From positions 3,136,001 to 3,200,000 of the forward strand of contig CAWAIF010000003.1 in the NCBI GenBank assembly GCA_963782055.1: DNA of 64,000 nucleotides, given 5' to 3'. Below are positions 14,833 through 35,299 of this stretch, in pieces (position 1 is the first letter of the stretch; the number at the start of each line of letters is the position of its first letter). The position numbers and the translations under genes were made by a program. The notes under the pieces are model-generated. The model saw only the letters and a program-made list of their open reading frames with translations, was not told the DNA's origin and searched no databases. This DNA comes from an uncultured delta proteobacterium. GTDB taxonomy: Bacteria > Myxococcota_A > Polyangia > Polyangiales > Polyangiaceae.

Positions 14833-15963
14833 CTACTCCTCTCCCTTGCGCTTGCGCGGCTCCACGCCGATCGCCCGGCCGAGCTCGCGATGGACCCGAC
14901 CGACGCGCTCCACCTGGCCCTTGGCCGGGAAGCGCTCGTAGAAGCCCTCCGCGCGGAAGCTCCGCGCGTGCTCGCTCCACGGGGCGAGGCGCTTCTCCCA
15001 GCGCTTCTGCCGGCCGTCCACCGGCTCGGCGTCCACGTGGGCGAGGTCGACGCACACGCGGAGCATCGCCTTGATGGTGACGGGGCGGGTGACCATGTAG
15101 TTCGAGTTGCCCCACGCCGGGCCCCACACCTTCTCCGCGGCCTTGAGGAAGTCGCGCACGACGGCGTAGTAGCGCTCCGCCTCGCGCGGGGCGCTGGCCT
15201 TCTTGGCGATGGCCTTCCAGTCGGCGGAGGCCCACTTGTGCAGCTCGTTGAAGAGCTCCGCCTGGAGGATCCACTTCTCCTGCTTGCTGCGCCCGCCGAG
15301 GCGGTTGATCTTGTAGCGCAGCGGGCTGTCCGAGCCGCTGTAGAGCAGGTCCACGAGGCGCGCGGCGAACTTCTTGTCCGGCGCCGCCCACGAGACGCGC
15401 TCGTAGAGGTCCACCAGGTGGCTCTTGTTGATGCGCGTCGGGGTGGAGTTGATGATGACGAACATCTCGGTGGCGAAGTCCTCGCTCTTGCCGTCGAAGA
15501 TGATGCACGGCACGTGGATGGTCTTCGCGTCGTCCGGGCGGTGGCGCATGTAGAAGTTGAGCGCCGCCAGGCGGTGCTGCCCGTCGATGATGAGGTACTT
15601 GCTGCGCGGCTCCTCCAGGTGGCCGACGTTCTCGAACGGGCGCACCGGGTCGAAGCGCAGCTTGTCCGCGGTGAACAGGAGCACGGTGCCCGGGATGGGC
15701 GGCTGGCTCACCGCCGTCTCGTAGAAGTTCTGGATGGCGGCGACCTTCGCCTTGGAGAGCTGCCGCTGGAACGCCTTGTCGGTCTGCTCGATCTTGGCGA
15801 TGAAGTGCGCGACCTCGTCGCCGGCCTCCGCCTCCTCGGCGGCGATCTTCTCGCCGTCGCCGTAGTAGCGGCTGATGAAGCGCACCTTGTCGAGCAGGTC
15901 CTCGGCCGGGTACGCGGCAAAGTAAAAGACGCCGTCTTTCTGACGAACCTGGGTCGCGAGCAT
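14833..15963 (-). CDS. DGQHR domain-containing protein (DndB/ParB-like)
   Basis: FQRQL, IIDGQHRL, MFVIINS motifs. Confidence 0.9.
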   Translation of the reverse strand: MLATQVRQKDGVFYFAAYPAEDLLDKVRFISRYYGDGEKIAAEEAEAGDEVAHFIAKIEQTDKAFQRQLSKAKVAAIQNFYETAVSQPPIPGTVLLFTADKLRFDPVRPFENVGHLEEPRSKYLIIDGQHRLAALNFYMRHRPDDAKTIHVPCIIFDGKSEDFATEMFVIINSTPTRINKSHLVDLYERVSWAAPDKKFAARLVDLLYSGSDSPLRYKINRLGGRSKQEKWILQAELFNELHKWASADWKAIAKKASAPREAERYYAVVRDFLKAAEKVWGPAWGNSNYMVTRPVTIKAMLRVCVDLAHVDAEPVDGRQKRWEKRLAPWSEHARSFRAEGFYERFPAKGQVERVGRVHRELGRAIGVEPRKRKGEE

Positions 15964-16016: not shown

Positions 16017-17174
16017 TCAGACGGCGCGCAGCAGCGTCGCCGAGGCGTTGCCGTAGTAGCCCATCGTCGTCACCAGCACGCTGCGGAGGCGGCCGGGGGC
16101 GGCGCCCCGCACCATCGCCGCGGCGGGGATCCCCTGCATCCAGCCAAGGGCGGCGGCCATCGCCATCGCGCCGCCCGCGCCGAGGGACTCCCCCAGGAAC
16201 TGCTTGGGCGCGGCGACCGGGACGTCCTCGCCGAGGACCGCGGTGATCCCGGCGAGTTCCGCGGTGTCGAAGGCGCGCAGCCCGGAGACGCCGCTCGCGA
16301 CGAGGTCCACGTCTCCCGCGCTCGCGCCGGCCTCGTCGAGGCACGCGCGCGCCGCGCGGGTCATGGCGTCGGTCGACGCGTGGATCATCTGCTTGTCGCT
16401 CGCGGGCGCCTCGAAGGCGCTGCCGCACCCCGCCGCCCACGCGAGCACCTTCGCGCCGCGCGCGGCGGCGAGCTCCGCCGTCTCGAGCACGAGCATCGCC
16501 GCGCCCTCGCCCAGGTGCGTGCCCGCCTCCAGCACGCCGATGCGCTGGAAGGCCAGGTAGAGCGCCTCGCTCATCGCCTCCGCGCCGCCGACGACGAGCG
16601 CGTCGGCGCGCCCGTTGGTCATGTGGATGTCGGCGCAGGCCACGGCGTCGAGCGCGCCGCAGTTGCCGTCGGAGACGGCGACGTTGAGGGCGCGCAGGTC
16701 CTCCCAGATACTGGCGTACCCGCTCGCGCTGTTGGCCACCGTGTTCGGGAACTTGGCGGGGTTGATGTATCGCGCGTCCTCCAGCTCGGCCACGCGGTCG
16801 AGCTCGGTGATCGCCTCCAGGCTTCCGTAGGCGTTGGAGGCGATGCAGCCCACGCGCTCCGGCGTGGCCGGCGGGACGAAGACGCCGTCCTTCTTGAGGC
16901 CGGCGTCGTGCGTGGCCAGGCGCGTGGCCACCACCAGCAGCTTGGTCAGGCGGTCGAGCGTGCGCAGGCCCTTGTCGCCCAGGTACCTGGAGGCGTCGAA
17001 GCCGAGGACCTCCGCCACGCCGGTGCCGGTGTACTTGGCCGTGTCGAAGCTCTCCACCGCGGCGCGCGGCGCGTCGCGGAGCATCACCGGCGCGGCGAGG
17101 GCGCGGAAGAACGCCTCCCGGCCGATGCCGATGGGGGAGCAGACGCCGAGCCCGGTGACCGCGAGCGCTCTCAC
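16017..17174 (-). CDS. catalytically degenerate ketosynthase (chain length factor-like)
   Basis: VTGLGVCSPIG N-terminus and FPNTVAN; catalytic positions read DGNCG, VASGVSG, KQFLGES; GTGA-coupled to the upstream KS. Confidence 0.85.
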   Translation of the reverse strand: MRALAVTGLGVCSPIGIGREAFFRALAAPVMLRDAPRAAVESFDTAKYTGTGVAEVLGFDASRYLGDKGLRTLDRLTKLLVVATRLATHDAGLKKDGVFVPPATPERVGCIASNAYGSLEAITELDRVAELEDARYINPAKFPNTVANSASGYASIWEDLRALNVAVSDGNCGALDAVACADIHMTNGRADALVVGGAEAMSEALYLAFQRIGVLEAGTHLGEGAAMLVLETAELAAARGAKVLAWAAGCGSAFEAPASDKQMIHASTDAMTRAARACLDEAGASAGDVDLVASGVSGLRAFDTAELAGITAVLGEDVPVAAPKQFLGESLGAGGAMAMAAALGWMQGIPAAAMVRGAAPGRLRSVLVTTMGYYGNASATLLRAV

Positions 17175-18448
17175 GACGCGGCCCGCACGCCGCGGGCACG
17201 GCGGCGGACCTCCGCCGGGTGCGGCAGCACCCCCGGCTTCGCGAAGCACGCCACCGCGTTGTAGCCGCCGAAGGCGAGGGAGTTGTTGAGCACGATGTCC
17301 GCCTTGCCCTTGCGCGCGGCGTTGGCGACGATCGCCACGTCGCACTCCGGGTCGGGGGTCTCGTAGCCCATCGTCGGCGGGTAGACGCCCGTCTCCAGGG
17401 TCATCACGCAGGCGATGGCCTCCAGCGCGCTCGCGGCGCCCATGCAGTGGCCGAGGGTGCTCTTGACGCTGGAGATCGGCACGCGCCGGTCACCGAAGAC
17501 GTCCCGCATCACCTTCGCCTCGGCCTGATCGTTGGCGCGCGTGCCGGTGCCGTGCGCGTTGACGAAGTCCACGTGCTCCGGGCCGATGCCGGTGTACTCC
17601 AGCGCCGCGCGCATCGCCGCGGTGCTGCCCGTCGCGTCGGGGTGCGGGCGGGTGATGTGGTAGGCGTCGCACGTCATCCCGTAGCCGCCGACCTCCGCGT
17701 GAAGTTGCGCGCCGCGGCGCATCGCGTGCTCCTCCGACTCCAGCACCAGCAGGCCGGCGCCCTCGCCGAGGATCAGACCCCGGCGGTTGAGGTCGAAGGG
17801 CTGGCAGCGCTCCGGCGCCATCGCCGCGAGGCGGACGAAGCCGGAGAACTCCAGCTTCTGCAGCACCTCCACGGCGCCGGCGATCACCACGTCCGCCCGG
17901 CCGGCGCGGATGAGGTCGGCGGCGAAGCCGATGGCGTAGTTGCCCGCGGCGCACGCGCCGGGCAGCGCCATCACCGTCCCGCGGGCGTCCACCGCGCGCG
18001 CCACGTGGATGGGCAGCAGGGTGGAGCCGTACTTCGGGAGCATGGTGCGGCGCAGCGCGGAGGGGCCGCGGGTGATCCACGCGTGGTCCAGGTCGGCGAT
18101 GAGGCCGGCCTCGCCCATCGTCGTGCCGATGACGACGGAGGTGCGCGGGCCCGCGAGGTGCTCCGGGCGGATCCCCGCGTCCTTCACCGCCATGCGCATC
18201 GCGGCGAGCGACATCGCCGAGCAGCGGCCGGTCTGCTTCAGCTCCGCGGCGGTGAGGTGGTCCTTCGGGTCGAAGTTCTTCACCTCGCCGCCGTACAGGC
18301 GGCCGAGGGACGACGCGTCGAAGGACTCGATCGGCGAGATGCCGACCTTGCCCTCCTGCAGGCCGCGGAAGAACGCCTCGCGACCGAGCCCGATGGAGCT
18401 GACGGCGCCGACGCCGGTGATGAAGACCCGCTGCGGCTCGGCTGACAC
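17171..18448 (-). CDS. beta-ketoacyl-ACP synthase (FabF-like / type II PKS KS)
   Basis: RVFITGVG, GACAAG, NAHGTGT, KSTLGHCMGA, NNSLAFGG; intact Cys-His-His triad. Confidence 0.93.
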   Translation of the reverse strand: MSAEPQRVFITGVGAVSSIGLGREAFFRGLQEGKVGISPIESFDASSLGRLYGGEVKNFDPKDHLTAAELKQTGRCSAMSLAAMRMAVKDAGIRPEHLAGPRTSVVIGTTMGEAGLIADLDHAWITRGPSALRRTMLPKYGSTLLPIHVARAVDARGTVMALPGACAAGNYAIGFAADLIRAGRADVVIAGAVEVLQKLEFSGFVRLAAMAPERCQPFDLNRRGLILGEGAGLLVLESEEHAMRRGAQLHAEVGGYGMTCDAYHITRPHPDATGSTAAMRAALEYTGIGPEHVDFVNAHGTGTRANDQAEAKVMRDVFGDRRVPISSVKSTLGHCMGAASALEAIACVMTLETGVYPPTMGYETPDPECDVAIVANAARKGKADIVLNNSLAFGGYNAVACFAKPGVLPHPAEVRRRARGVRAAS

Positions 18449-18592
18449 ATCGAGCTTATACCCCTGCGCGATGGGGCCCCGCAACGAAACGGGTCCACAA
18501 AACAGGCGCGAATCTCGCTTCGCGCGCGTCCCGCCGTTCGCACGGTCCGCGCCTTGCGCGAGGCGCGCGGCCGAAGTAAGCACCCCGGCGCC

Positions 18593-20380
18593 ATGCCCGC
18601 CACGCCTCGCCTCGTGGCTCCGACGCTCGTCGAAGCGGTCAAGGAGCTCGCCCACAAGACCGACAAGGGGTTCGACTTCGTCCGCGCCGACGGGACGGAG
18701 CGCTTCTGCTCCTTCCACACCATCGACGAGGAGGCGGCGCGGCGCGGCGCGCACCTCGCGGCGAAGGGCGTGAAGAAGGGCGACCGCGTCGCGCTGGTCA
18801 TCCCCGACCCCGACGAGTTCGTCCTCACCTTCCTGGGCGCGATCTACGCGGGCGGCGTGCCCGTGCCGATGTACCCGCAGCTCTCCTTCAAGAACGTGGA
18901 GAGCTACCACGACACCGTCGCGCACATCACCAACGCCTCCGGCGCCGAGCTGCTCGTCACGACGCAGGCGACGCGCCAGTACGTCGAGCCCGTCCTCCCG
19001 CGCGCGCCGAAGCTGCGCGAGGTGCTGGACGTCACCGCGCTCCACGCGCCGGCGCCCGGCGCGCTCGACGTGAAGGTGCAGCCGGAGGACCTCTGCTTCA
19101 TGCAGTTCACCTCCGGGAGCACGTCGCGGCCGAAGGGCGTGATGGTCACGCACGGCAACCTCTCCGCCAACAGCGAGGCCTTCATGATCCACGGCCTCGG
19201 CAAGGACTCGTCGGTCGACAAGGGCGTGAGCTGGCTGCCGCTCTTCCACGACATGGGGCTCATCGGCTTCGTGATCGGGCCGCTCTTCACCGACATCCCG
19301 GTCGTCTTCCTGCCGACGGCGAGCTTCGTGCGCTCGCCGCGCATCTGGCTGGACACCATCCACAAGCACCGCGGCAGCATCACCTACGCCCCCAACTTCG
19401 CCTACCAGCTCGTCGCCAAGCGGCTGAAGGAGAAGGACGTCACGGGCCTCGACCTCTCCTGCATGCGCATCACCGGCTGCGGCGCCGAGCCCATCCAGTC
19501 CAAGACGCTGCGCGACTTCACCGAGCGCCTGGCCCCCGCGGGCTTCGACCCGAAGAGCTTCATCCCGTCGTACGGCATGGCGGAGGCCACCCTCGCCATC
19601 ACCTTCGCGAAGCACGGGACCGGCTTCCACACCGACCGCGTCGAGAGCGCGTCGCTGCAGAAGGGCACCGCCGCCCCGTCGAAGGGCGACGACCCCGAGG
19701 ACGCGATGACGCAGGAGCTCGTGGCGTGTGGCTTCCCGTTCCCCGGCCACGAGGTCGCGGTCATCGACGAGCACGGCAAGCGCCTGGGCGAGCGGCAGGT
19801 CGGCCAGATCGTCACGCGCGGCCCGAGCATCACGCAGGGCTACTTCCAGGAGCCGGAGCTCACCGCGCAGGCCTTCAAGAAGCTGGGCGCCGAGCCGGAG
19901 GGCGAGGTGTGGCTGCACACCGGCGACCTCGGCTACATCGCCGGCGGCGAGATCTTCATCTGCGGCCGCGTGAAGGACATCATCATCATCCGCGGGCGCA
20001 ACTTCTACCCGAGCGACATCGAGTGGGTGGCCAGCGAGCTGCCCGGCGTCCGGCGCGGCAACGTGGTCGCCTTCGGCGTGACGGTGGACGCGGAGGGCCG
20101 CCACGTGGAGGACGGCACCGGCGAGGAGCAGCTCGTCGTCTGCGCCGAGGCCCACTCCAGCGACGCCGCCGCCCTGGTGCAGGACATCCAGAAGGCCGTC
20201 ACCGACCAGATCGGCATCGCCGTCTGGAAGGTCGAGATCGTCCCGCAGGGATCGCTGCCGCGCACCTCCAGCGGCAAGCCGCAGCGCCGCAAGACCAAGC
20301 AGATGTTCCTGGACGGCACCCTCCCGCGCCCGCGCGGCGAGGCACCGGCCCCCGGCACGAAGAATACCGCGAGCGCATAG
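18593..20380 (+). CDS. fatty acyl-AMP ligase
   Basis: QFTSGSTSRPKGV, SWLPLFHDMGLIG, SYGMAEATL, TGDLG, GRNFYPSDIE, LPRTSSGK (FAAL signatures). Confidence 0.92.
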   Translation: MPATPRLVAPTLVEAVKELAHKTDKGFDFVRADGTERFCSFHTIDEEAARRGAHLAAKGVKKGDRVALVIPDPDEFVLTFLGAIYAGGVPVPMYPQLSFKNVESYHDTVAHITNASGAELLVTTQATRQYVEPVLPRAPKLREVLDVTALHAPAPGALDVKVQPEDLCFMQFTSGSTSRPKGVMVTHGNLSANSEAFMIHGLGKDSSVDKGVSWLPLFHDMGLIGFVIGPLFTDIPVVFLPTASFVRSPRIWLDTIHKHRGSITYAPNFAYQLVAKRLKEKDVTGLDLSCMRITGCGAEPIQSKTLRDFTERLAPAGFDPKSFIPSYGMAEATLAITFAKHGTGFHTDRVESASLQKGTAAPSKGDDPEDAMTQELVACGFPFPGHEVAVIDEHGKRLGERQVGQIVTRGPSITQGYFQEPELTAQAFKKLGAEPEGEVWLHTGDLGYIAGGEIFICGRVKDIIIIRGRNFYPSDIEWVASELPGVRRGNVVAFGVTVDAEGRHVEDGTGEEQLVVCAEAHSSDAAALVQDIQKAVTDQIGIAVWKVEIVPQGSLPRTSSGKPQRRKTKQMFLDGTLPRPRGEAPAPGTKNTASA

Positions 20381-20560
20381 CGGCGTTCGCGGTGCGTGCG
20401 TCGTTACGCGGCGTACGGCCCAAATGTGCAGTCTTCGTATTGAGTCGGGCCGCGTTTTCAGGTAGGTGACGGCCCAAGCTCCCGACGGCATCGCCCTCGC
20501 ATGGGGACGGTACGCCGGGCCCGAGAATGGGCTCCCCAGGGGGCCCGGAGAGAAAGACCC

Positions 20561-20812
20561 ATGGCCTTCAGTCGTGCAGAGCTCCTTCAGATGTTCCAGA
20601 AGACCGCGGCCGAGATCGCGGAGAAGGAGCTGCCCAACATCTCGGAGGGCACCGTCATCAGCGAGCTCGGCATCGACTCCCTCGGCATGCTGGAGATCGT
20701 CGGCGCCATGGAGCGCCAGCTCAAGATCCAGATCCCCGACGAGTCGCTCGCCGGGATCCAGACGGTGAAGGACTTGCTGGAGCTCGTCGAGAAGCGCCAG
20801 CACGCCGCCTGA
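20561..20812 (+). CDS. acyl carrier protein
   Basis: 83 aa, ELGIDSLGMLEIV..IQTVKDL. Confidence 0.92.
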   Translation: MAFSRAELLQMFQKTAAEIAEKELPNISEGTVISELGIDSLGMLEIVGAMERQLKIQIPDESLAGIQTVKDLLELVEKRQHAA

Positions 20813-20859
20813 GGATCGCGCTCACGCGGCCGCAGGAAGCCAGAAGAACCGGAGTGATC

Positions 20860-21111
20860 ATGACCGACGAGACGCTCAAGCAAGAGATCAGGGACCTCAT
20901 CTGCGAGATCGCGGAGCGCGACGACCTCCCCGACGACACCCACTTCAAGGACCTGGGGATCGACTCGATGATGGGCGTCGAGATCGTCGCGGCGATCGAG
21001 CGGCAGTACAAGGTCAAGATCGAGGACGCCGAGCTGACCGAGGTCACGACGCTCAACAAGAGCTTCGACCTGGTGAAGTCCAAGCTGGGCGCCGACGCGA
21101 AGGTGGCCTGA
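20860..21111 (+). CDS. acyl carrier protein
   Basis: 83 aa, DLGIDSMMGVEIVAAIERQY; SD GGAG. Confidence 0.92.
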   Translation: MTDETLKQEIRDLICEIAERDDLPDDTHFKDLGIDSMMGVEIVAAIERQYKVKIEDAELTEVTTLNKSFDLVKSKLGADAKVA

Positions 21112-23498: not shown

Positions 23499-25598
23499 TC
23501 ACGGGTCCACCACGTAGGCGTCCAGGTCCCACGTGCCCTTCTGGCCGCCCCACCCGTCGATGATCACCCAGTAGGTGCCCGGCGCGAGGGTCTGGTCCAG
23601 GAAGCTGCGCGGGCCGCTGAAGGAGTAGTTGCAGGCGATCTCGGTCCCGGGGCAGCTCGTGCCCTGGCGGAGCGCGAGGATGGTGCCGTAGCTCGAGCCT
23701 TCCATGCTGAGCACCACGCGCTTCTTCTGGGCGAGCACCAGGCGGAGGATCTGGTCGGCCGCGCCGCCCTTCGGCTGGTTGGCGGCGTCGCAGCTGTCGT
23801 CGAAGTCGGGGTTGTGGGTGGTGGTGTCGCCGGTGAAGTAGCCGCCGCTCGCCGGGATGTCGACGAAGGTCCCGCAGTCGTCGGCGCCGGGCACCGCGGT
23901 CGAGGCGACGGTGGGCCGCGCGAGGGTGGTGAGCGTGCCCTGCTGGCCAAAGGTGTCGCCCACCACCGCGCGGTAGCTACCCGCGGCGAGGTTGCGCTTG
24001 CCCGCGCGCACCGGGGTGGACGCCGCCCAGCACAGCAGGTTGTCTGCCTGGGTGCAGCCTGGCGCGTCGAGCGACACCGCGCCGTAGTCGTTCTGCGGGT
24101 AGCGCGCGACGACCAGCACGTCGCTCGGCACGCCCAGCTCCACGTCGTACGCGGCGGTGGGCGCGCCGGGGTAGCAGCCGTCCTGGATGGCGTCCTCGTG
24201 GTTCGCCAGGTCGAAGGGGAGGGTGCCGTTCAGGGTGGCCGGCGGCGCGGAGGAGCACAGCTCGTCGGCGGGCGAGGTGGTGGGCGCGGCGAGCTGCACC
24301 AGCACGCTCGCGTCGATGGGCGTCGTCGCCGCCACGGTGAGCACGTAGGTCCCCGCGGGCACGCCGCGCGCGAAGAGCGGGAGCGAGCTGCCCTTCTTGC
24401 AGTGCAGCTCGTCGGTCTGGCCGGAGCAGCTCGGCGCGCGCAGCCCGACGACCGGCTGGCCGGCGCCCTTCAGCGTGGAGGCGTAGACGCGCACGTCCTG
24501 GGCCTGGGCGAGGGTCAGGGAGTAGGTGAGCTCGCCGGTCACCGCGCCGCACGCGTCGGGGAGATCCAGGCTGGGATCGACGAGGGAGACGGTGGTGGGC
24601 GTGCCCGGCGCGATGGGCGTGGCGGTGCCGCAGTCCTCGTTGGCCGCCTTCGGCGTGGGGGAGAGGAAGTCCACCGAGAGGGTGACCGACGTCTCCAGCG
24701 AGGAGGTGACGACGACGTAGTAGGTGCCCGGCGCCACGTCGCGGGCGCGCGCCCGTGTGCTCCACGCGCCGGCGCCCGCGCCGCACGCCAGCTCGGAGAC
24801 CGGCTGGCCGCACGCCGACTGGATGGCGACCGACATCTCGCCGTTGGTCGGCCCGGCGACCCACACGTCCAGGTCCGCGTTGGGCCCGGCCGGCACGGTG
24901 ACCGCGGCGACCACGTCGTGCGCGGTCTGCGGCTTGCTCACCGTGCAGGAGGTCTGGAAGGTCTTGCCCGCCCCGGCGGTGCTCATGGCGTAGGTGCCCG
25001 GCGCGGTGATGGACATCGCCGTCTGGCAGGTGGCGTTCTGGGCGCTCACGCACCCGGCCTCGTCGGTCTGGCCGTTGCAGTTGTCGTCGACGCCGTTGCC
25101 GCAGATCTCCGAGTGCTTGCTGGAGACGTTGGGGTCGAGATCGTTGCAGTCCCCTCCGCCCTTGCACACCGCGTCGGGATCGCCGTCCTGGTCGAGATCG
25201 CGCGGCTCGTGGGTGCACGACTTGTCCGCCTCGACGCACTTGCTGATCTCGCACGTGGAGGAGGAGCACGCGACGACGGGGCCTGGCTGGCAGCCGCTGG
25301 TCCGCTTGCACAGCTCCTTGCCGTTGCAGAAGACGCCGTCGTCGCAGAGCGTGTCGTCGGGGGTGTTGCGGCAGCGCAGGAGCTGCGGATCGCAGGTGTC
25401 GAAGGTGCAGGCGATGCCGTCGTCGCACTGGGAGTCGTCCTGGCAGGGGGCTCCCAGGATGTCGGCGTCCTCCCCGCCGTCCCCGGTGGAGGCGTCGGGG
25501 GCGTCGGCGCCGGCGTCGAAGGGGTGGACGTTGTTGTCCGGAACCGGCCCGTTGCCGCACGCGACGAGGAAGGCGGCGAGAAGGAGGGCGCGGCGCAC
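23499..25598 (-). CDS. Cys-rich surface lipoprotein with putative metal-binding repeat
   Basis: Lipobox LVAC; CDDGIACTFDTC; DCNDLDPNV...EICGNGVDDNCNGQTDE; repeated beta-sandwich modules ending in GTY(Y/V/W). Confidence 0.8.
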   Translation of the reverse strand: MRRALLLAAFLVACGNGPVPDNNVHPFDAGADAPDASTGDGGEDADILGAPCQDDSQCDDGIACTFDTCDPQLLRCRNTPDDTLCDDGVFCNGKELCKRTSGCQPGPVVACSSSTCEISKCVEADKSCTHEPRDLDQDGDPDAVCKGGGDCNDLDPNVSSKHSEICGNGVDDNCNGQTDEAGCVSAQNATCQTAMSITAPGTYAMSTAGAGKTFQTSCTVSKPQTAHDVVAAVTVPAGPNADLDVWVAGPTNGEMSVAIQSACGQPVSELACGAGAGAWSTRARARDVAPGTYYVVVTSSLETSVTLSVDFLSPTPKAANEDCGTATPIAPGTPTTVSLVDPSLDLPDACGAVTGELTYSLTLAQAQDVRVYASTLKGAGQPVVGLRAPSCSGQTDELHCKKGSSLPLFARGVPAGTYVLTVAATTPIDASVLVQLAAPTTSPADELCSSAPPATLNGTLPFDLANHEDAIQDGCYPGAPTAAYDVELGVPSDVLVVARYPQNDYGAVSLDAPGCTQADNLLCWAASTPVRAGKRNLAAGSYRAVVGDTFGQQGTLTTLARPTVASTAVPGADDCGTFVDIPASGGYFTGDTTTHNPDFDDSCDAANQPKGGAADQILRLVLAQKKRVVLSMEGSSYGTILALRQGTSCPGTEIACNYSFSGPRSFLDQTLAPGTYWVIIDGWGGQKGTWDLDAYVVDP

Positions 25599-25624: not shown

Positions 25625-27556
25625 CTACTTCCTGATGTGCGGCGGCGGCGGCGGATCGGGGGGCGGCAAGTTGACCGTCGGCCGCGGGAGCGGGTCGGGC
25701 GGCGGCGGGAGCGGTCGCTTGCCGGCGTCGGGCCTGGCCATCGGCGTGGGCAGCGGATCGTTGGGCATGACCGTGGGTGGCGGCACCGGATCGGGCGGCG
25801 GGATGGTCTCGGTCGGCGTCGCGGTGGTGGCGGCGTCCGGCGTCTCGACCAGCGTCGGGACAGGGAGCGGGTCGGGTGGCGGCGGCGCCGTCGCGTGGTC
25901 GCACGCCGTGAGCGGAATGAGCGCCAGCGTCGCGGCGCTCAGGGCGCCCCAGCGCGAGGCCGTCCGCGCCCGCCTGGCGACCTTCGGGGCGATCGCGGCC
26001 CGGACGATCGCGTTGGTCCCCTCCTGCACGCGCGCCTCGAGCTCCACGTTGGCGCGCTCCACCTCCTCGGTCATCCGCGCGGTGAAGTCCTGGAACGCGG
26101 CGGGGTCCTCCGACGTGCTCGACTCGGCGAAGTCGAGGATGCGGACCATCTTCTCGTTGCAGTCCAGGTTGACCGCGCGCGTCGTCTCGGTCGTCATCTC
26201 GCGAAGCTGCTGCGTGAGGGCGTGCGGGTAGAACGTGCGGAGCAGGTGCAGGTGGTAGCCGAGGCCGAGCGTGGAGTTCATCAGGCCGTCGCACCGGAAG
26301 TTGCGATCCAGAAAGGCGCTCGCGAAGACCCGGAAGGCGCGCTCCGCCCTCGGATCGCGGATGGCGTAGTCCCAGCCGAAGACGTCGCCGCGCAGCCGGC
26401 CCTCGCGCTCCAGCTTCGTCATGAGCGGCGTGCCCACGTAGATCTCGGTCCGGCAGAAGTTCATCGGCACGTCGGCGTATTCGCGCAGGAAGGCGAAGCT
26501 CTGGCGGAGTGACTCCAGGCGGGACTCGGGGTCGAAGACGAGCATGTTGAAGCACGCGTAGACGTCGCGATCGCGCAGGAACTCGAGCGCGCGGCGGTTG
26601 GTCTGGAGGTCGACGCTGCGCCCGAGCGTCCGGAGGCCCTGCGTAGAGCCCGCCTCGATGCCGATGTAGACGCGCAGCAGGCCGATCTCCCGCAGCACGG
26701 AGAAGACGCGCTCGTCCACGTCGTCCGGTCGCGCCTTGACGACGAGGGCGACGTCGTCGACCCGCCGCGCCTTCAGCGCGTCGCGCAGCGCCTCCATGCG
26801 GGCCAGGTCGCGATCGTGATCGCGCGTGAAGAAGTCGTCGTCGTGGAAGACGAACATGCGCGCGCCGCGAGTCCGGCGCAGCTCCGCCATCTCGTCGGCG
26901 ACGTTCTCCGGGCTGCGCCAGCGGTACATCTGGCCGCCCGCGGACTTGAGGTACGCGTGGATGCAGCAGAAGGTGCAGTGCCCGAAGCAGCCGCGCGTGC
27001 CCACCATGAAGGCCGCGGGGACCCCGAGGTGGAGCTGCGGCTGGCCGGTACGCTTCGGGAAGGGGAGGGCGTCCAGGTCCTCGATCAGCGGTCGCGGCTC
27101 GCTCGCCACGACCGCGCCGTCGTCGGCGCGGTACGCGAGGCCACGGATGCCGGCGAGGTCCGCCAGGCGGCCGCCGCGCTCGACGGCGCGGCACAGCTCG
27201 ACGATCGTCACCTCGCCCTCGTGACGGACGATGGAGTCGATGGCCGGGAAGGCCTCCAGGCACTCGCGGTAGGCGAAGGTCGGGAAGTGCCCGCCGCCGG
27301 TGACGTGCCCGCCGTAGCCGTGCTCGCGGAGCGCGGAGGCCAGGGCGCCGAACTCTCTGGCGCGGAACTGGAACGTCATCGACATGCCGACGAGCGCCGG
27401 CCGCGTGCGCGCGACGGCGTCGAGCACGTCCCCGGTGTCGCCCGGACCGTTGAACGTCGCGAAGTGCGGCGTGTGTCCCGCCGCTTCCAGCGCGGACGCC
27501 AGGTAGCGGAGGGCGAGATTTTCTTCGAGCTCGGCGCCGACGAGAAGAACGTCCAT
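25625..27556 (-). CDS. cobalamin-binding radical SAM protein with Pro-rich C-terminal extension
   Basis: ENLALRYLAS, GGHFPT, HEGE (B12-binding domain); RGCFGHCTFC; FHDDDF; IGIEAG. Confidence 0.9.
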   Translation of the reverse strand: MDVLLVGAELEENLALRYLASALEAAGHTPHFATFNGPGDTGDVLDAVARTRPALVGMSMTFQFRAREFGALASALREHGYGGHVTGGGHFPTFAYRECLEAFPAIDSIVRHEGEVTIVELCRAVERGGRLADLAGIRGLAYRADDGAVVASEPRPLIEDLDALPFPKRTGQPQLHLGVPAAFMVGTRGCFGHCTFCCIHAYLKSAGGQMYRWRSPENVADEMAELRRTRGARMFVFHDDDFFTRDHDRDLARMEALRDALKARRVDDVALVVKARPDDVDERVFSVLREIGLLRVYIGIEAGSTQGLRTLGRSVDLQTNRRALEFLRDRDVYACFNMLVFDPESRLESLRQSFAFLREYADVPMNFCRTEIYVGTPLMTKLEREGRLRGDVFGWDYAIRDPRAERAFRVFASAFLDRNFRCDGLMNSTLGLGYHLHLLRTFYPHALTQQLREMTTETTRAVNLDCNEKMVRILDFAESSTSEDPAAFQDFTARMTEEVERANVELEARVQEGTNAIVRAAIAPKVARRARTASRWGALSAATLALIPLTACDHATAPPPPDPLPVPTLVETPDAATTATPTETIPPPDPVPPPTVMPNDPLPTPMARPDAGKRPLPPPPDPLPRPTVNLPPPDPPPPPHIRK

Positions 27557-31383: not shown

Positions 31384-33048
31384 ATGAGCGACTACGCCAA
31401 GCTGCGCGCGGAGTGGGAGGAGAAGGTGCGGGGGCCGCTGGAGAAGAAGGCGAAGCCCCGCGAGCGCATCGGCACGCTCGCCGGCAAGGCGGACGCGGCG
31501 CCCCTCTACGGGCCGGACGATCTGGAGGCCCTCGGCTTCGATCCCGCGCGCGATCTGGGCGTGCCCGGCAAGCCGCCCTTCACCCGCGGGGTGCAGCCCA
31601 ACATGTACCGCGGCCGCCTCTGGACGATGCGCCAGTACGCCGGCTTCGGCACCGCGAAGGAGTCCAACGAGCGCTACCACTACCTGCTCGAGCAAGGCCA
31701 GACGGGCCTGAGCGTCGCCTTCGACCTGCCCACGCAGATGGGGCGCGACTCCGACGATGCGCTCGCCGCCGGCGAGGTGGGCCGCGTCGGCGTCGCCATC
31801 GACTCCCTGGAGGACATGCGCGTGCTCCTGCGCGGCCTGCCCCTCGGCAAGATCTCCACCTCCATGACCATCAACGCGACCGCCGCGGTCCTGCTCTGCC
31901 TCTACATCGCGGTGGCGGAGGAGAACGGGGTCTCGCGCGACAGGCTCGCCGGCACCATCCAGAACGACATCCTGAAGGAGTACATGGCGCGCGGGACGTA
32001 CGTCTTCCCGCCGCGGCCGTCGCTGCGCCTCATCACCGACATCTTCGCCTTCGCGGCGAAGGAGGTGCCGCGGTGGAACACCATCTCCATCAGCGGCTAC
32101 CACATCCGCGAGGCCGGCTGCGACGCGGTGCAGGAGGTCGCCTTCACCCTCGCCGACGGCATGGCCTACGTGAAGGCGGCCCTCGACGCCGGCCTGGACG
32201 TGGATGGTTTCGCCGGGCAGCTGTCCTTCTTCTTCAACGTCCACAACAACGTGCTCGAGGAGGTGGCGAAGTTCCGCGCGGCGCGCCGCATGTGGAGCCG
32301 CATCATGCAGGAGCGCTTCGGGGCGAAGACCGACCGCGCCCGCGCCCTGCGCTTCCACTGCCAGACCGCCGGGATGACCCTCACCGCGCAGCAGCCGCTC
32401 AACAACGTGGTGCGCGTCACGCTGCAGGCCCTCGCCGCGGTGCTGGGCGGCTGCCAGTCGCTGCACACCAACAGCTACGACGAGGCCCTCGGCCTGCCGA
32501 CGACCGAGGCGGTGACGGTCGCCCTGCGCACGCAGCAGATCCTCGCCCACGAGTCGGGCGTGGCGGACTTCGTCGACGGCCTGGGCGGCAGCTACGCCAT
32601 CGAGGCGCTCACCGATCGCATCGAGAAGGAGGCGGAGCGCTACCTCGCCCGCATCGACGAGCTGGGCGGCATGGTCGACGCCATCGAGCAGGGCTACCCG
32701 CAGCGGGAGATCCAGAACACCGCCTACGGCTACCAGCTGGAGGTGGAGAAGAAGCAGCGCGTCGTGGTCGGGCAGAACGCCTTCGTGCAGGACTCCCCGC
32801 CCATCCCGGTGATGCGCGTCGACCCGCGCATCGAGCAGGAGCAGAAGGAGCGCGTCGGCGCGGTGCGGGCGAAGCGCGACGCGACGAGGCACTCCGAGTC
32901 CCTCGCGCGGATCGAGGCGGCGGCCAGGACGAAGGACAACCTCCTGCCACTCATCCTGGATGCGGTGAAGGCTTACGCGACGGTCGGGGAGATCAGCAAC
33001 GTGCTGCGCGGGGTGTGGGGGGAGCACCAGGAGACCCTCGTCCTCTGA
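31384..33048 (+). CDS. methylmalonyl-CoA mutase, catalytic (N-terminal) subunit
   Basis: [43 protein letters not shown]; no B12-binding domain (split type). Confidence 0.93.
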
Positions 33049-33262
33049 GGCCGTCGTGCCAGCGTGATGGCGATGGAGGGTTGCCACCATCGGGCCGACG
33101 CTCGCGCAGCGCCACGATGCCATCCCGAAGCGGGCGGTTCTCCCGTCCAGGGATCGGACCGGCGCGTCCTCTCGTCGTTCCGGACGCCGCCCCTCGCCCG
33201 ACAAGGACGAAGGGAGAACACGTGCCCCCTTCTCGCTCGGTCGCGCATAGGATTTCCCCATG

Positions 33263-35299
33263 GTGCGCCGTGAAGAAGCAGGTCGTCCGTCGGGCATGCC
33301 CGACGAACGACCTGCCTCAAGCTGCGCTTCTCCAGCGGGTGAGAGTCCCGCACCGGTAAGCGTCGGAGCGCCGGGTAGCAGGCCCCAGCCGAGCGGGAGA
33401 GATCCCGTCGGCCGAGCGGGGCGTCGAAAGGGTCCACGGACCGAGCGAGCACGCGGGCCGCAACATGAAGTGAAGCTTGCAGCCTCGTCAGATCTACAAA
33501 CCGGGAGCCGAGCCGATCATGTCGCGGCGAAGGCAATATCGGCGGCGCCAGATCCGAAACGCGCCGTCGGTCCCGGCGGGGTAGGGAGCGCAGCACGCGT
33601 GCAAGGAGGAGTGCGGAACTCGGGAGGCCCGTCTGCGTCGCCCTCGTCGGGGCAAGGCGCGTCGTATAAGCCAGAGGCGAAGTCGGCCGCTGCGCAGCGG
33701 GAGTCCGAGGGGGTCACTGTACCGAAGAGCGAGGCGCGAGCTTCGCGAACGAACGCCGTGAAGAACAACGCGGCAGGAGGGAAAGACCCCTGCAGTGGTC
33801 GTGTCGGCGGAGCAGGTAAGCGCGAGGGCATGGCCGGCGAGACCGGTCCCAACCACCCCCATCGGCGACAGCCCATGGACAAAGTGCGACAACTGCAACG
33901 CCGGCTGTGTGCCGCGGCCAAGCGGCATCCGGAGCGCCGATTCCACGCGCTGTATGACCGCATCGCGAGGCGTGACGTCCTCGCGGAAGCGTGGAAGCGG
34001 GTAAGGAGGAACAAGGGAGCCGCGGGCGTCGATGCCCAGACGATCGCGGCGCTCGAGGTGTACGGAGTGGATCGACTCCTCGGAGAGATCCATGACGTGC
34101 TCCGTGCAGGCAGGTACCGGCCGGCAGCGGTGCTGCGCCGGTACATCCCGAAGGCCGATGGGAAGAAGCGGCCGCTTGGGATCCCGACGGTCCGAGACCG
34201 GGTGGTGCAGATGGCGACGAAGCTCGTGCTGGAGCCGATCTTCGAGGCGAGCTTTCGCTCGTGCTCGTACGGCTTCCGTATCGGGCGGAGCGCGACGGAC
34301 GCCCTGGAGACGCTGAGGAAGCTCGGCGCGAAGGGGTACAACCACGTGCTCGACGCCGACATCCGTGACTACTTCGGGAGCATCGATCACGACAAGCTGA
34401 TGAAGCTCGTCGAGCGGCGCATCTCGGACCGGAGGGTGCTCAAGCTGCTGCGGCAGTGGCTCACGGCGGGGGTGATGGACGAAGGCACGGTGACCAACCC
34501 CTCCAGCGGCACGCCGCAGGGCGGGGTGATCTCGCCGCTGCTCTCGAACATCTACCTCGCCGTGCTCGACGACGTGTGGACGAAGCGGTGCGCGCATCTT
34601 GGCGAGCTGGTTCGTTATGCGGACGACTTCGTCGTGATGTGCAGGACGAAGCGTGACGTCGACGAGGCCGAGCTTCGCGTGAAGCACGTGATGACGCGAC
34701 TCGGGCTCGAGCTGCACCCGGACAAGACGAGGAAGCTGGACCTCTCCTGGGGTAAGAAGGGGTTCGACTTCCTCGGCTGCCACCTGCGGAAACGCTTGAG
34801 CGGGTCCATCTGGGAGAGGTCGCGCAAACGCGTGTACTTCCTCCAGCGCTGGCCATCGGCTCGCGCGATGAAGCGGATCCGGCAGCGCGTGAGGGACCTC
34901 ACCCCGCGATCACGCTGCCACGCGGACCTGCGCGACGTCGTCGCGCAGCTCAACCCCGTGCTGCGTGGCTGGGGCGAGTACTTTCGCACCGGGAACGCCG
35001 ACGTGAAGTTCAACCGACTCGACGAGTACGTGTACGAACGGCTTCGAGCGCTGCGCCTGAAACGGGCCGGCTCGAAGCTCAAGGCCGGACAAGCCGAGCG
35101 CTGGACCCGCGACTACTTCGTCGAAGGCTTCGGGCTCCACCGCCTGCGCGGGACCATCCGCTACCCGGAGGCCGCGTAATGCCGCGTCACGAGAGACCAC
35201 CGGTAAGCCGTGTGCGGGAAATCCGCACGCACGGTTTGAGAGGGGGTCTTGACTCCAACCGCCGCCGTAGGGCGGCCAAGGTGTAAGGATCTACCAATG
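33263..35299 (+). mobile_element. group II intron
   Basis: 5' GTGCG at 33263; domain V AAGCCGTGTGCGGGAAATCCGCACGCACGGTTT (~35205-35237); domain VI ending GGATCTACCAAT(G); internal RT ORF. The 3' end is 35298 or 35299. Confidence 0.93.
33830..35179 (+). CDS. ltrA: group II intron reverse transcriptase/maturase (no endonuclease domain)
   Basis: GAAGVD, RPLGIPTVRDR, SYGFR, GTPQGGVISPLLSNIYL, RYADD, FDFLG, LNPVLRGWGEYF; alternative starts at 33875 or 33260. Confidence 0.95.
   Translation: MAGETGPNHPHRRQPMDKVRQLQRRLCAAAKRHPERRFHALYDRIARRDVLAEAWKRVRRNKGAAGVDAQTIAALEVYGVDRLLGEIHDVLRAGRYRPAAVLRRYIPKADGKKRPLGIPTVRDRVVQMATKLVLEPIFEASFRSCSYGFRIGRSATDALETLRKLGAKGYNHVLDADIRDYFGSIDHDKLMKLVERRISDRRVLKLLRQWLTAGVMDEGTVTNPSSGTPQGGVISPLLSNIYLAVLDDVWTKRCAHLGELVRYADDFVVMCRTKRDVDEAELRVKHVMTRLGLELHPDKTRKLDLSWGKKGFDFLGCHLRKRLSGSIWERSRKRVYFLQRWPSARAMKRIRQRVRDLTPRSRCHADLRDVVAQLNPVLRGWGEYFRTGNADVKFNRLDEYVYERLRALRLKRAGSKLKAGQAERWTRDYFVEGFGLHRLRGTIRYPEAA

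Follow-up and report, generated by a model that had tools for sequence, protein, structure and literature searches.

A radical SAM enzyme fused to a repeat-bearing tail

The window analysed here, i.e. the whole 64,000-nucleotide stretch of DNA from an uncultured delta proteobacterium, contains a gene at 25625..27556 (minus strand) whose 643-residue product combines a radical SAM enzyme that depends on cobalamin, an internal export-like signal and a tail of Asp-Pro repeats. The enzyme belongs to class B (cobalamin-dependent): an N-terminal B12-binding Rossmann domain (residues 11-121; 27194..27526, minus strand; Pfam PF02310, E 3.5e-15) is followed by a radical SAM core (residues 185-345; 26522..27004, minus strand; PF04055, E 1.8e-16) that includes the CxxxCxxC motif at residues 190-197 (26966-26989, minus strand). 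Both Pfam matches lie above cut-off, in agreement with the two domains that a sequence-only reading of this DNA had named.

In an AlphaFold2 model based on a 90-row alignment, residues 1-520 are predicted with confidence. They include most of a C-terminal helical domain (approximately residues 400-523; 25988..26359, minus strand) that is closed by a 38-residue helix (485-522), the 10-residue blocks over 401-520 having pLDDT values of 89-98. Consensus comparison showed that this domain is shared with relatives lacking the tail. The tail itself is of low confidence and unplaced, with pLDDT below 50 at 544-556 and 567-615. A single-sequence fold (pLDDT 42.7) was set aside.

The solved folds nearest to the enzyme are OxsB, which ranks first, then TsrM, MgmA and TokK, and also CysS, all at 15-21% identity. 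None of the 23 NCBIfam matches of the fused protein reaches its curated cut-off: the best scores, those of BchE (134 against a cut-off of 481 bits), ApyD, HpnR and HpnJ, are all far under it, and rSAM_ocin_1 and the CUAEP-tail and RCCLKC-tail families also stay below theirs. In the ESM Atlas, the whole protein leads to generic B12 radical SAM clusters, and the tail alone gives no usable match.

The stop codon of the fused gene is followed, 26 bp on, by the start (25598) of a gene for a Cys-rich, lipoprotein-like protein of 699 residues (23499-25598, minus strand), exactly as the sequence-only reading had it; the product has a canonical LVAC box and matches the Cu-binding_MopE motif (PF11617). 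This gene does not belong to the system: its family was found beside none of the 41 other loci inspected, and we ruled it out as a partner. No genuine neighbouring gene family recurs around the enzyme in more than three of these 41 loci plus the window.

The Asp-Pro repeats are conserved in fused homologs

The five D-P-x-P motifs noticed in the tail from the outset were recovered at Asp562, 589, 600, 621 and 634. On the minus strand, they read D562-P-L-P-V-P (25856..25873), D589-P-V-P-P-P (25775..25792), D600-P-L-P-T-P (25742..25759), D621-P-L-P-R-P (25679..25696) and D634-P-P-P-P-P (25640..25657), the last being followed by a basic C-terminus. Five D-P-x-P-x-P copies were reached in only 4 of 100,000 shuffles of the 91-residue tail, for a motif defined after inspection of this protein and its homologs. 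When the 7.58-Mb genome was scanned in six frames for ORFs with P-x-D-P-[LPV]-P, the fused ORF stood out with five copies of D-P-[LPV]-P, the others having three at most, and the scan gave no further convincing multi-copy substrate in trans.

Whether the repeats and the lipobox Cys are conserved was among the checks that the sequence-only reading had called for, and both are. Among the best 120 of 765 homologs (56-79% identity excluding the query; those with a name are Myxococcota or Deltaproteobacteria), at least one D-P-[LPVIM]-P is present in the tail of 119 and at least three in 118, and a Cys lies ahead of the first motif in 117. The copy number ranges from 3 to 8, a variability that resembles that of multi-core precursors. 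The tail logo is P-P-P-P-D-P-[LPV]-P-x-P, with Pro frequencies of 0.93 at +3 and 0.97 at +5, and the spacers vary. Pro makes up 42% of these tails on average; the residue after an Asp is mostly Pro (521 cases) or Ala (212), rarely anything else. At the DNA level, the tail is in frame at 31 of 34 genome loci (62-84% identity), follows a frameshift at two and is cut by the contig end at one; D562-P563-x-P565, in the first motif, is kept in 29 of 29 coding sequences.

An internal signal-like segment precedes the repeats

Between the helical domain and the repeats, at residues 525-552, lie the basic region, the hydrophobic stretch and the LTAC box that the sequence-only reading had described. The n-region-like segment KVARRARTASR (residues 525-535; 25952..25984, minus strand) is followed by a short, uncharged Ala/Leu h-region-like segment (W536-A551; 25904..25951, minus strand) and by Cys552 (25901..25903, minus strand), the predicted site of lipidation and of signal peptidase II cleavage. 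The net charge of the n-region-like segment is +2 to +6 in all 102 homologs scored, the other 18 of the 120 having escaped the pattern used. Export of the tail by the Tat route was ruled out, as none of the 102 carries a Tat consensus and 28 have any RR at all.

The segment belongs to a true fusion, since no start codon is conserved at positions 490-566 of the 29 coding sequences. The best candidate, M495, is present in 15 of 29, and the invariant V510 is encoded by GTG in 11 of 29, which is not above overall Val usage; a nested, in-frame lipoprotein gene was thereby ruled out.

The genome has the genes expected of a lipoprotein route, with three copies of Lgt and two of LspA (signal peptidase II). 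We found no account, in the literature searched, of processing at a lipobox approximately 550 residues inside a protein. It could be that the tail is modified and Cys552 left without a lipid, the segment serving as a signal-anchor that stays uncleaved or as a leader to which the enzyme binds, or being cut by another peptidase. Most of the lipoboxes are indeed non-canonical: [LVI][ASTVIG][GAS]C is found in just 26 of 118 fused homologs, PLAC being the commonest form (45) and nine having Asp at -1, and in 5 of 38 split partners from Chloroflexota (see below). Pro548, kept in 29 of 29 coding sequences, and Trp536, kept in 27, are conserved beyond what is ordinary for a signal (among the genome's 365 crude candidates for N-terminal lipoprotein signals, only 10 have Pro at -3 or -4), and these two residues may possibly serve a leader function or delay export. 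In addition, two close homologs are devoid of the Cys, and small peptides without any signal pair with related enzymes.

Against this explanation, which we regard as unlikely, stand the placement of the Cys, in that it precedes the first motif nearly throughout (C552 is in column in 27 of 29 coding sequences) and is nearly absent from the rest of the tails (a Cys fraction that rounds to 0.000); the residue at -1, which is Ala, Gly or Ser in 108 of 118 fused homologs; the uncharged run, typically 13-17 residues, which is short for a membrane-spanning helix; and the window's own box, LTAC, which is canonical. As for the two Cys-less homologs, they have an A-Y-G/Q site resembling that of signal peptidase I, and export thus seems to be the retained property; one further homolog looks frameshifted. 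It is reasonably likely that the tail is exported and lipidated at Cys552, with the enzyme left on the cytoplasmic face by its h-region.

The motif accompanies the enzyme in split genes and small peptides

Another check that had been proposed, a search for split versions of the enzyme and a repeat-bearing lipoprotein, showed them to be common in Chloroflexota and myxobacteria. Downstream of a tail-less enzyme from Anaerolineae (44% identity) lies a lipoprotein-like gene in which C-D-P-P-P-P occurs three times. The enzyme is part of a tail-less group with at least 120 members listed, of 515-565 residues, whose metagenome loci have an adjoining lipoprotein-like gene with 1-5 repeats and a C-terminal domain. 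The logo over 38 Chloroflexota partners is P-[MIV]-[IV]-C-D-P-[PA]-P-P-P. In one Chloroflexota genome, the lipoprotein-like partner lies on another contig, away from the tail-less enzyme. The window's own genome encodes a split paralog outside the window: a tail-less enzyme (G000:C3:3557060-3558577, minus strand; 43-44% identity) and a lipoprotein neighbour with a single V-V-D-P-M-P-P-P, the pair spanning G000:C3:3555467-3558577 (minus strand). Note that, at some Chloroflexota split loci (L058:3175-4968, L111:2345-3061 and similar), the lipoprotein partner is in turn followed by another B12 radical SAM-like gene, which may bring about a second modification.

Members from the window's phylum include a second fused clade, whose tails have V-V-D-P-[PLA]-P-P-D repeats and a C-terminal domain. 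The C-terminal domain of the Chloroflexota partners gives weak matches in 11 of 12 fused tails of this sister clade (E 0.002-0.24 among 54 sequences) and a strong match in two split partners, so that those fused tails look like whole lipoproteins joined onto the enzyme. By contrast, none of 32 tails of the window's clade matches such a C-terminal domain, and the product of that clade would thus be an almost pure polyproline lipopeptide. Searches of the partners against Pfam and NCBIfam gave nothing meaningful, except that one of them has a carboxypeptidase-regulatory-like domain.

A third arrangement is seen with distant enzymes (33-37% identity), which are preceded by peptides of 66-147 residues that lack a signal and bear R-G-P-V-A-D-P-A-P repeats and a conserved C-terminal helix. 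D-P-x-P is present in 44 of 44 homologs of one such peptide, those with a name coming from Phycisphaerae and Aerophobetes. The motif also varies. Three fused relatives have Glu motifs of the form E-x-A-P (CEMAPPP, CERAP and AEAAPPP), and Pro+3 is lost from two single-copy peptides, which read D-P-G-I or D-P-A-I. Two enzymes within the clade that keep the F-Q loop described below have upstream small peptides (L110:817-1122 and L116:1858-2241) with E-[IVL]-P-M-V-H repeats and no D-P; these peptides may form a sister RiPP family whose core differs. Short signal-bearing peptides are also encoded upstream of more distant B12 radical SAM genes (L113:216-431, L114:583-870, L115:1-294 and L120:3-107). 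They end in P-L-L-G-G-L-A-A-L-G-F-W-W-L-W-R-R, with a weak MYXO-CTERM match under cut-off (E 0.037), and L114 has two B12 radical SAM enzymes in tandem.

The association was quantified over 149 loci, 95 of which were counted because the enzyme aligned to residue 430 or beyond and at least 500 nt of downstream sequence was available. At 79 of 95 loci, at least two D-P-x-P were found either in the fused tail or in a single ORF on the same strand no more than about 1 kb away, compared to 2.1% of 2,000 random windows of the window's genome; a single D-P-x-P was dropped as a criterion owing to its 35% background. As related loci are not independent, 79 of 95 is an overstatement, and by clusters the count is 67 of 83 at 90% identity and 21 of 33 at 70%. 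The other 16 loci, inspected by eye, comprise ten with a single-copy or variant D-P partner, three with Glu motifs, one with its partner elsewhere, one unclear and one with none; at L085, no partner was seen at the locus. Among the 54 rows dropped, 15 have wide flanks. Three or four motifs are present in each of the seven at 37-66% identity, and no D-P-x-P is present with any of the eight more distant B12 enzymes (27-35% identity).

A family member (E<=1e-60) is present in 30 of 301 genomes sampled in the window's phylum and in 4 of 301 Chloroflexota genomes, two of the latter being seed genomes; the family range, drawn from the loci examined, is a lower bound. A quick tree of 71 enzymes, with SH-aLRT support only, groups all myxobacterial fused and split members (100), as it does the clade of the window (100), the split members from Chloroflexota (97) and those with small peptides (98). 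The small-peptide group also takes in (99) the two enzymes whose peptides carry E-[IVL]-P-M-V-H, which shows that the core can change. The tree does not settle the fork among the myxobacterial subclades, nor therefore the number and order of fusions.

The repeats as probable substrate and the likely chemistry

Enzyme and motif stay together in three architectures, with the copy number varying and no other gene conserved, as is usual for a maturase and its precursor. We therefore consider it highly probable, on comparative genomic grounds, that the repeats are the enzyme's substrate. The sequence-only reading had proposed a self-contained system in which the enzyme acts on its own tail: the tail as partner and likely substrate stands, as does self-containment, there being no conserved neighbours, but the lipobox, non-canonical in most homologs, fits the proposal less well. 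The gene is a real, conserved and self-contained enzyme-partner fusion, and genomics lends good support to the substrate assignment.

The tail could instead be a membrane tether or a periplasmic Pro-rich spacer for an enzyme acting elsewhere, e.g. on a lipid. Pro-rich linkers are common in myxobacteria, and the best NCBIfam scores, albeit far below cut-off, include the hopanoid enzymes HpnR and HpnJ besides BchE and ApyD. A tether, however, would not persist as a separate adjacent gene or as a soluble, signal-less D-P-x-P peptide. In addition, the motif stays exact while the spacers drift, and no lipid-pathway genes are conserved nearby, all of which makes this explanation quite improbable.

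Returning to the repeats as substrate, the cofactor motifs bear on the reaction. The base-off cobalamin motifs defined in PMC9204698 (a G-x-S-x-x loop, GG and GE) are all present, as G57-x-S59-x-T61-F62-Q63, G88-G89 and G114-E115, and G57, F62, Q63, G88, G89, G114 and E115 are invariant in the alignment of A2. The beta3-alpha3 loop is a family-specific G-x-S-x-x-F-Q, without the Trp of TokK, the Arg of TsrM or the Asn of OxsB described in PMC9204698 and PMC13331322. By sequence comparison, Gln63 occupies the position of TokK Trp76, and Ile199, two residues after the Cys motif, that of a Trp in enzymes of the TokK/ThnK/CysS type, whose double-Trp signature is thus absent from the window's enzyme. 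Note that, of the three fused proteins with Glu motifs, L142 and L152 have Y-T or F-T instead of F-Q in this loop, possibly a co-variation with specificity, seen in very few cases.

Given the Gln at the Trp76 position and the presence of OxsB, which is not a methylase, among the nearest folds, methylation is not diagnosed by sequence; since the family loop matches no hallmark of TokK, TsrM or OxsB, the case for methylation comes from what most of the class does. The majority of annotated class B enzymes appear to act as methylases (PMC9204698). In such enzymes, a 5'-deoxyadenosyl radical takes a hydrogen and methylcobalamin gives the methyl group, and Val, Ile, Phe and Pro are among the residues methylated in RiPPs (PMC11285071). 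Going by this majority, the reaction is probably a C-methylation by the same radical and methylcobalamin route.

The acid is the sole motif position kept universally, which makes the Asp the likeliest target. The Glu variants have Met, Arg or Ala in place of Pro+1, and the loss of Pro+3 in two single-copy peptides also leaves the acid in place. The evidence thus leans towards the acid, rather than a proline, as the modified residue. If the tail is the substrate of some other chemistry, this could be proline C-methylation, as by BotRMT3, or a non-methylating radical reaction such as cross-linking, ring formation or decarboxylation. Pro+3 is 90-92% conserved in four motif logos, proline methylation by class B enzymes is known (PMC11285071), the top structural match is the ring-contracting OxsB (at the 15-21% identity common to all matches) and the family has a loop of its own. 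We nevertheless find such a chemistry rather improbable: prolines are lost from the motif where the acid stays, position 61 is neither the Asn of OxsB nor the Arg of TsrM, and the class majority points the other way.

Proposed pathway and comparison with known systems

The pathway that we favour would start with C-methylation of the Asp of each D-P-x-P-x-P by the cobalamin radical SAM domain acting on its own tail. The internal signal would then route the tail through Sec, Cys552 would be lipidated, and a proline-rich lipopeptide of 92 residues, starting at Cys552, would be released. The signal being short, weakly hydrophobic and kinked by Pro, post-translational export would be favoured, which would leave the enzyme time to act first. 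Taken as a whole, from Asp methylation to release of the lipopeptide, this reading has about an even chance of being right. A still more specific version is offered tentatively, at somewhat less than even chances: a one-gene, single-use factory that installs a new Asp modification (e.g. beta-methyl-Asp), whose internal lipobox is processed by Lgt and LspA to free a polyproline lipopeptide, within an undescribed cross-phylum family that has moved its acid-Pro core between fused tails, separate lipoproteins and soluble peptides. Our guess for the product is a stiff, protease- and acid-resistant lipopeptide at the cell surface.

The closest functional parallel is that of the RiPP-lipoprotein hybrids termed DAG-RiPPs (DybA/DybH, NedA/NedBC), in which modification by MNIO enzymes in the cytoplasm precedes lipoprotein export and whose authors expect other enzyme classes to act likewise (PMC13056109). 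The proposed pathway would have in common with them a cytoplasmic maturase, core motifs, repeated or not, on a precursor with a lipoprotein signal (here a predicted one) that is lipidated afterwards, and a short course of two genes or fewer. A precursor encoded with a RiPP-type enzyme and bearing conserved core motifs is also seen here. DAG-RiPPs, however, have MNIO enzymes and a separate precursor gene with an N-terminal signal, as opposed to a class B radical SAM enzyme and an acid-Pro core, and the main text of PMC13056109 has no mention of cobalamin, B12, radical SAM or fused. In the fused form, moreover, the signal sits 525 residues inside the enzyme chain, an N-terminal signal on a separate precursor being found only in the split relatives.

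In its gene architecture, the fused form resembles borosins of types I-III such as OphMA, whose precursor is joined to the C-terminus of the modifying enzyme (PMC11285071). As described there, borosins rely on a SAM-dependent backbone N-methyltransferase and a protease; neither B12 or Fe-S cofactors nor a lipoprotein signal inside the chain form part of that description. The alpha-N-methyltransferase domain by which borosins are defined is absent from the fused protein, in which Pfam finds just the B12-binding and Radical_SAM domains. The class B peptide C-methyltransferases (PoyB/C, BotRMT1-3, TsrM, MgmA/QCMT and ApyD) share its domain order and cofactor motifs, and act on peptides, at Pro or side-chain carbons. 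As these enzymes are described, none forms a fusion with its substrate or has an acid-Pro repeat as its target, and identity to the solved members is 15-21%.

The fused protein does not match TIGR04133, and TIGR04134 was not found in the window's genome. TIGR04133 and TIGR04134 denote a SPASM-type radical SAM enzyme of Bacteroidetes and a putative lipoprotein (lipo_with_rSAM), encoded by split genes, and offer a further likeness in that a radical SAM gene is paired with a motif-bearing putative lipoprotein. The literature that we searched contains no description of the present B12 radical SAM family. The family appears undescribed: it is built like a borosin, would work like a DAG-RiPP, and falls outside both as defined.

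If the proposed pathway is true, RiPP-lipoprotein hybrids would extend beyond MNIO enzymes to those of the cobalamin radical SAM kind, acid-Pro cores would bring a new residue chemistry, and a lipoprotein would be processed at a signal located internally, after a folded enzyme of the cytoplasm. A likely substrate is also gained for an orphan family of B12 radical SAM enzymes, found in about a tenth of the phylum genomes sampled, and the short, transferable motif could serve as a tag for site-specific C-methylation of proteins.

Other features of the window

Elsewhere in the window, a DndB-like (DGQHR-containing) protein is encoded at 14833-15963 (minus strand; PF14072, above cut-off). In the cluster at 16017-21111, a fatty acyl-AMP ligase-like AMP-binding enzyme (PF00501) is accompanied by two ORFs that look like ketosynthases and two that look like acyl carriers, the latter two assignments being read from sequence alone. 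A gene for methylmalonyl-CoA mutase, itself a B12 user, lies at 31384-33048, just upstream of a gene for a group II intron reverse transcriptase/maturase (RVT_1 and GIIM domains) at 33260-35179 (plus strand).
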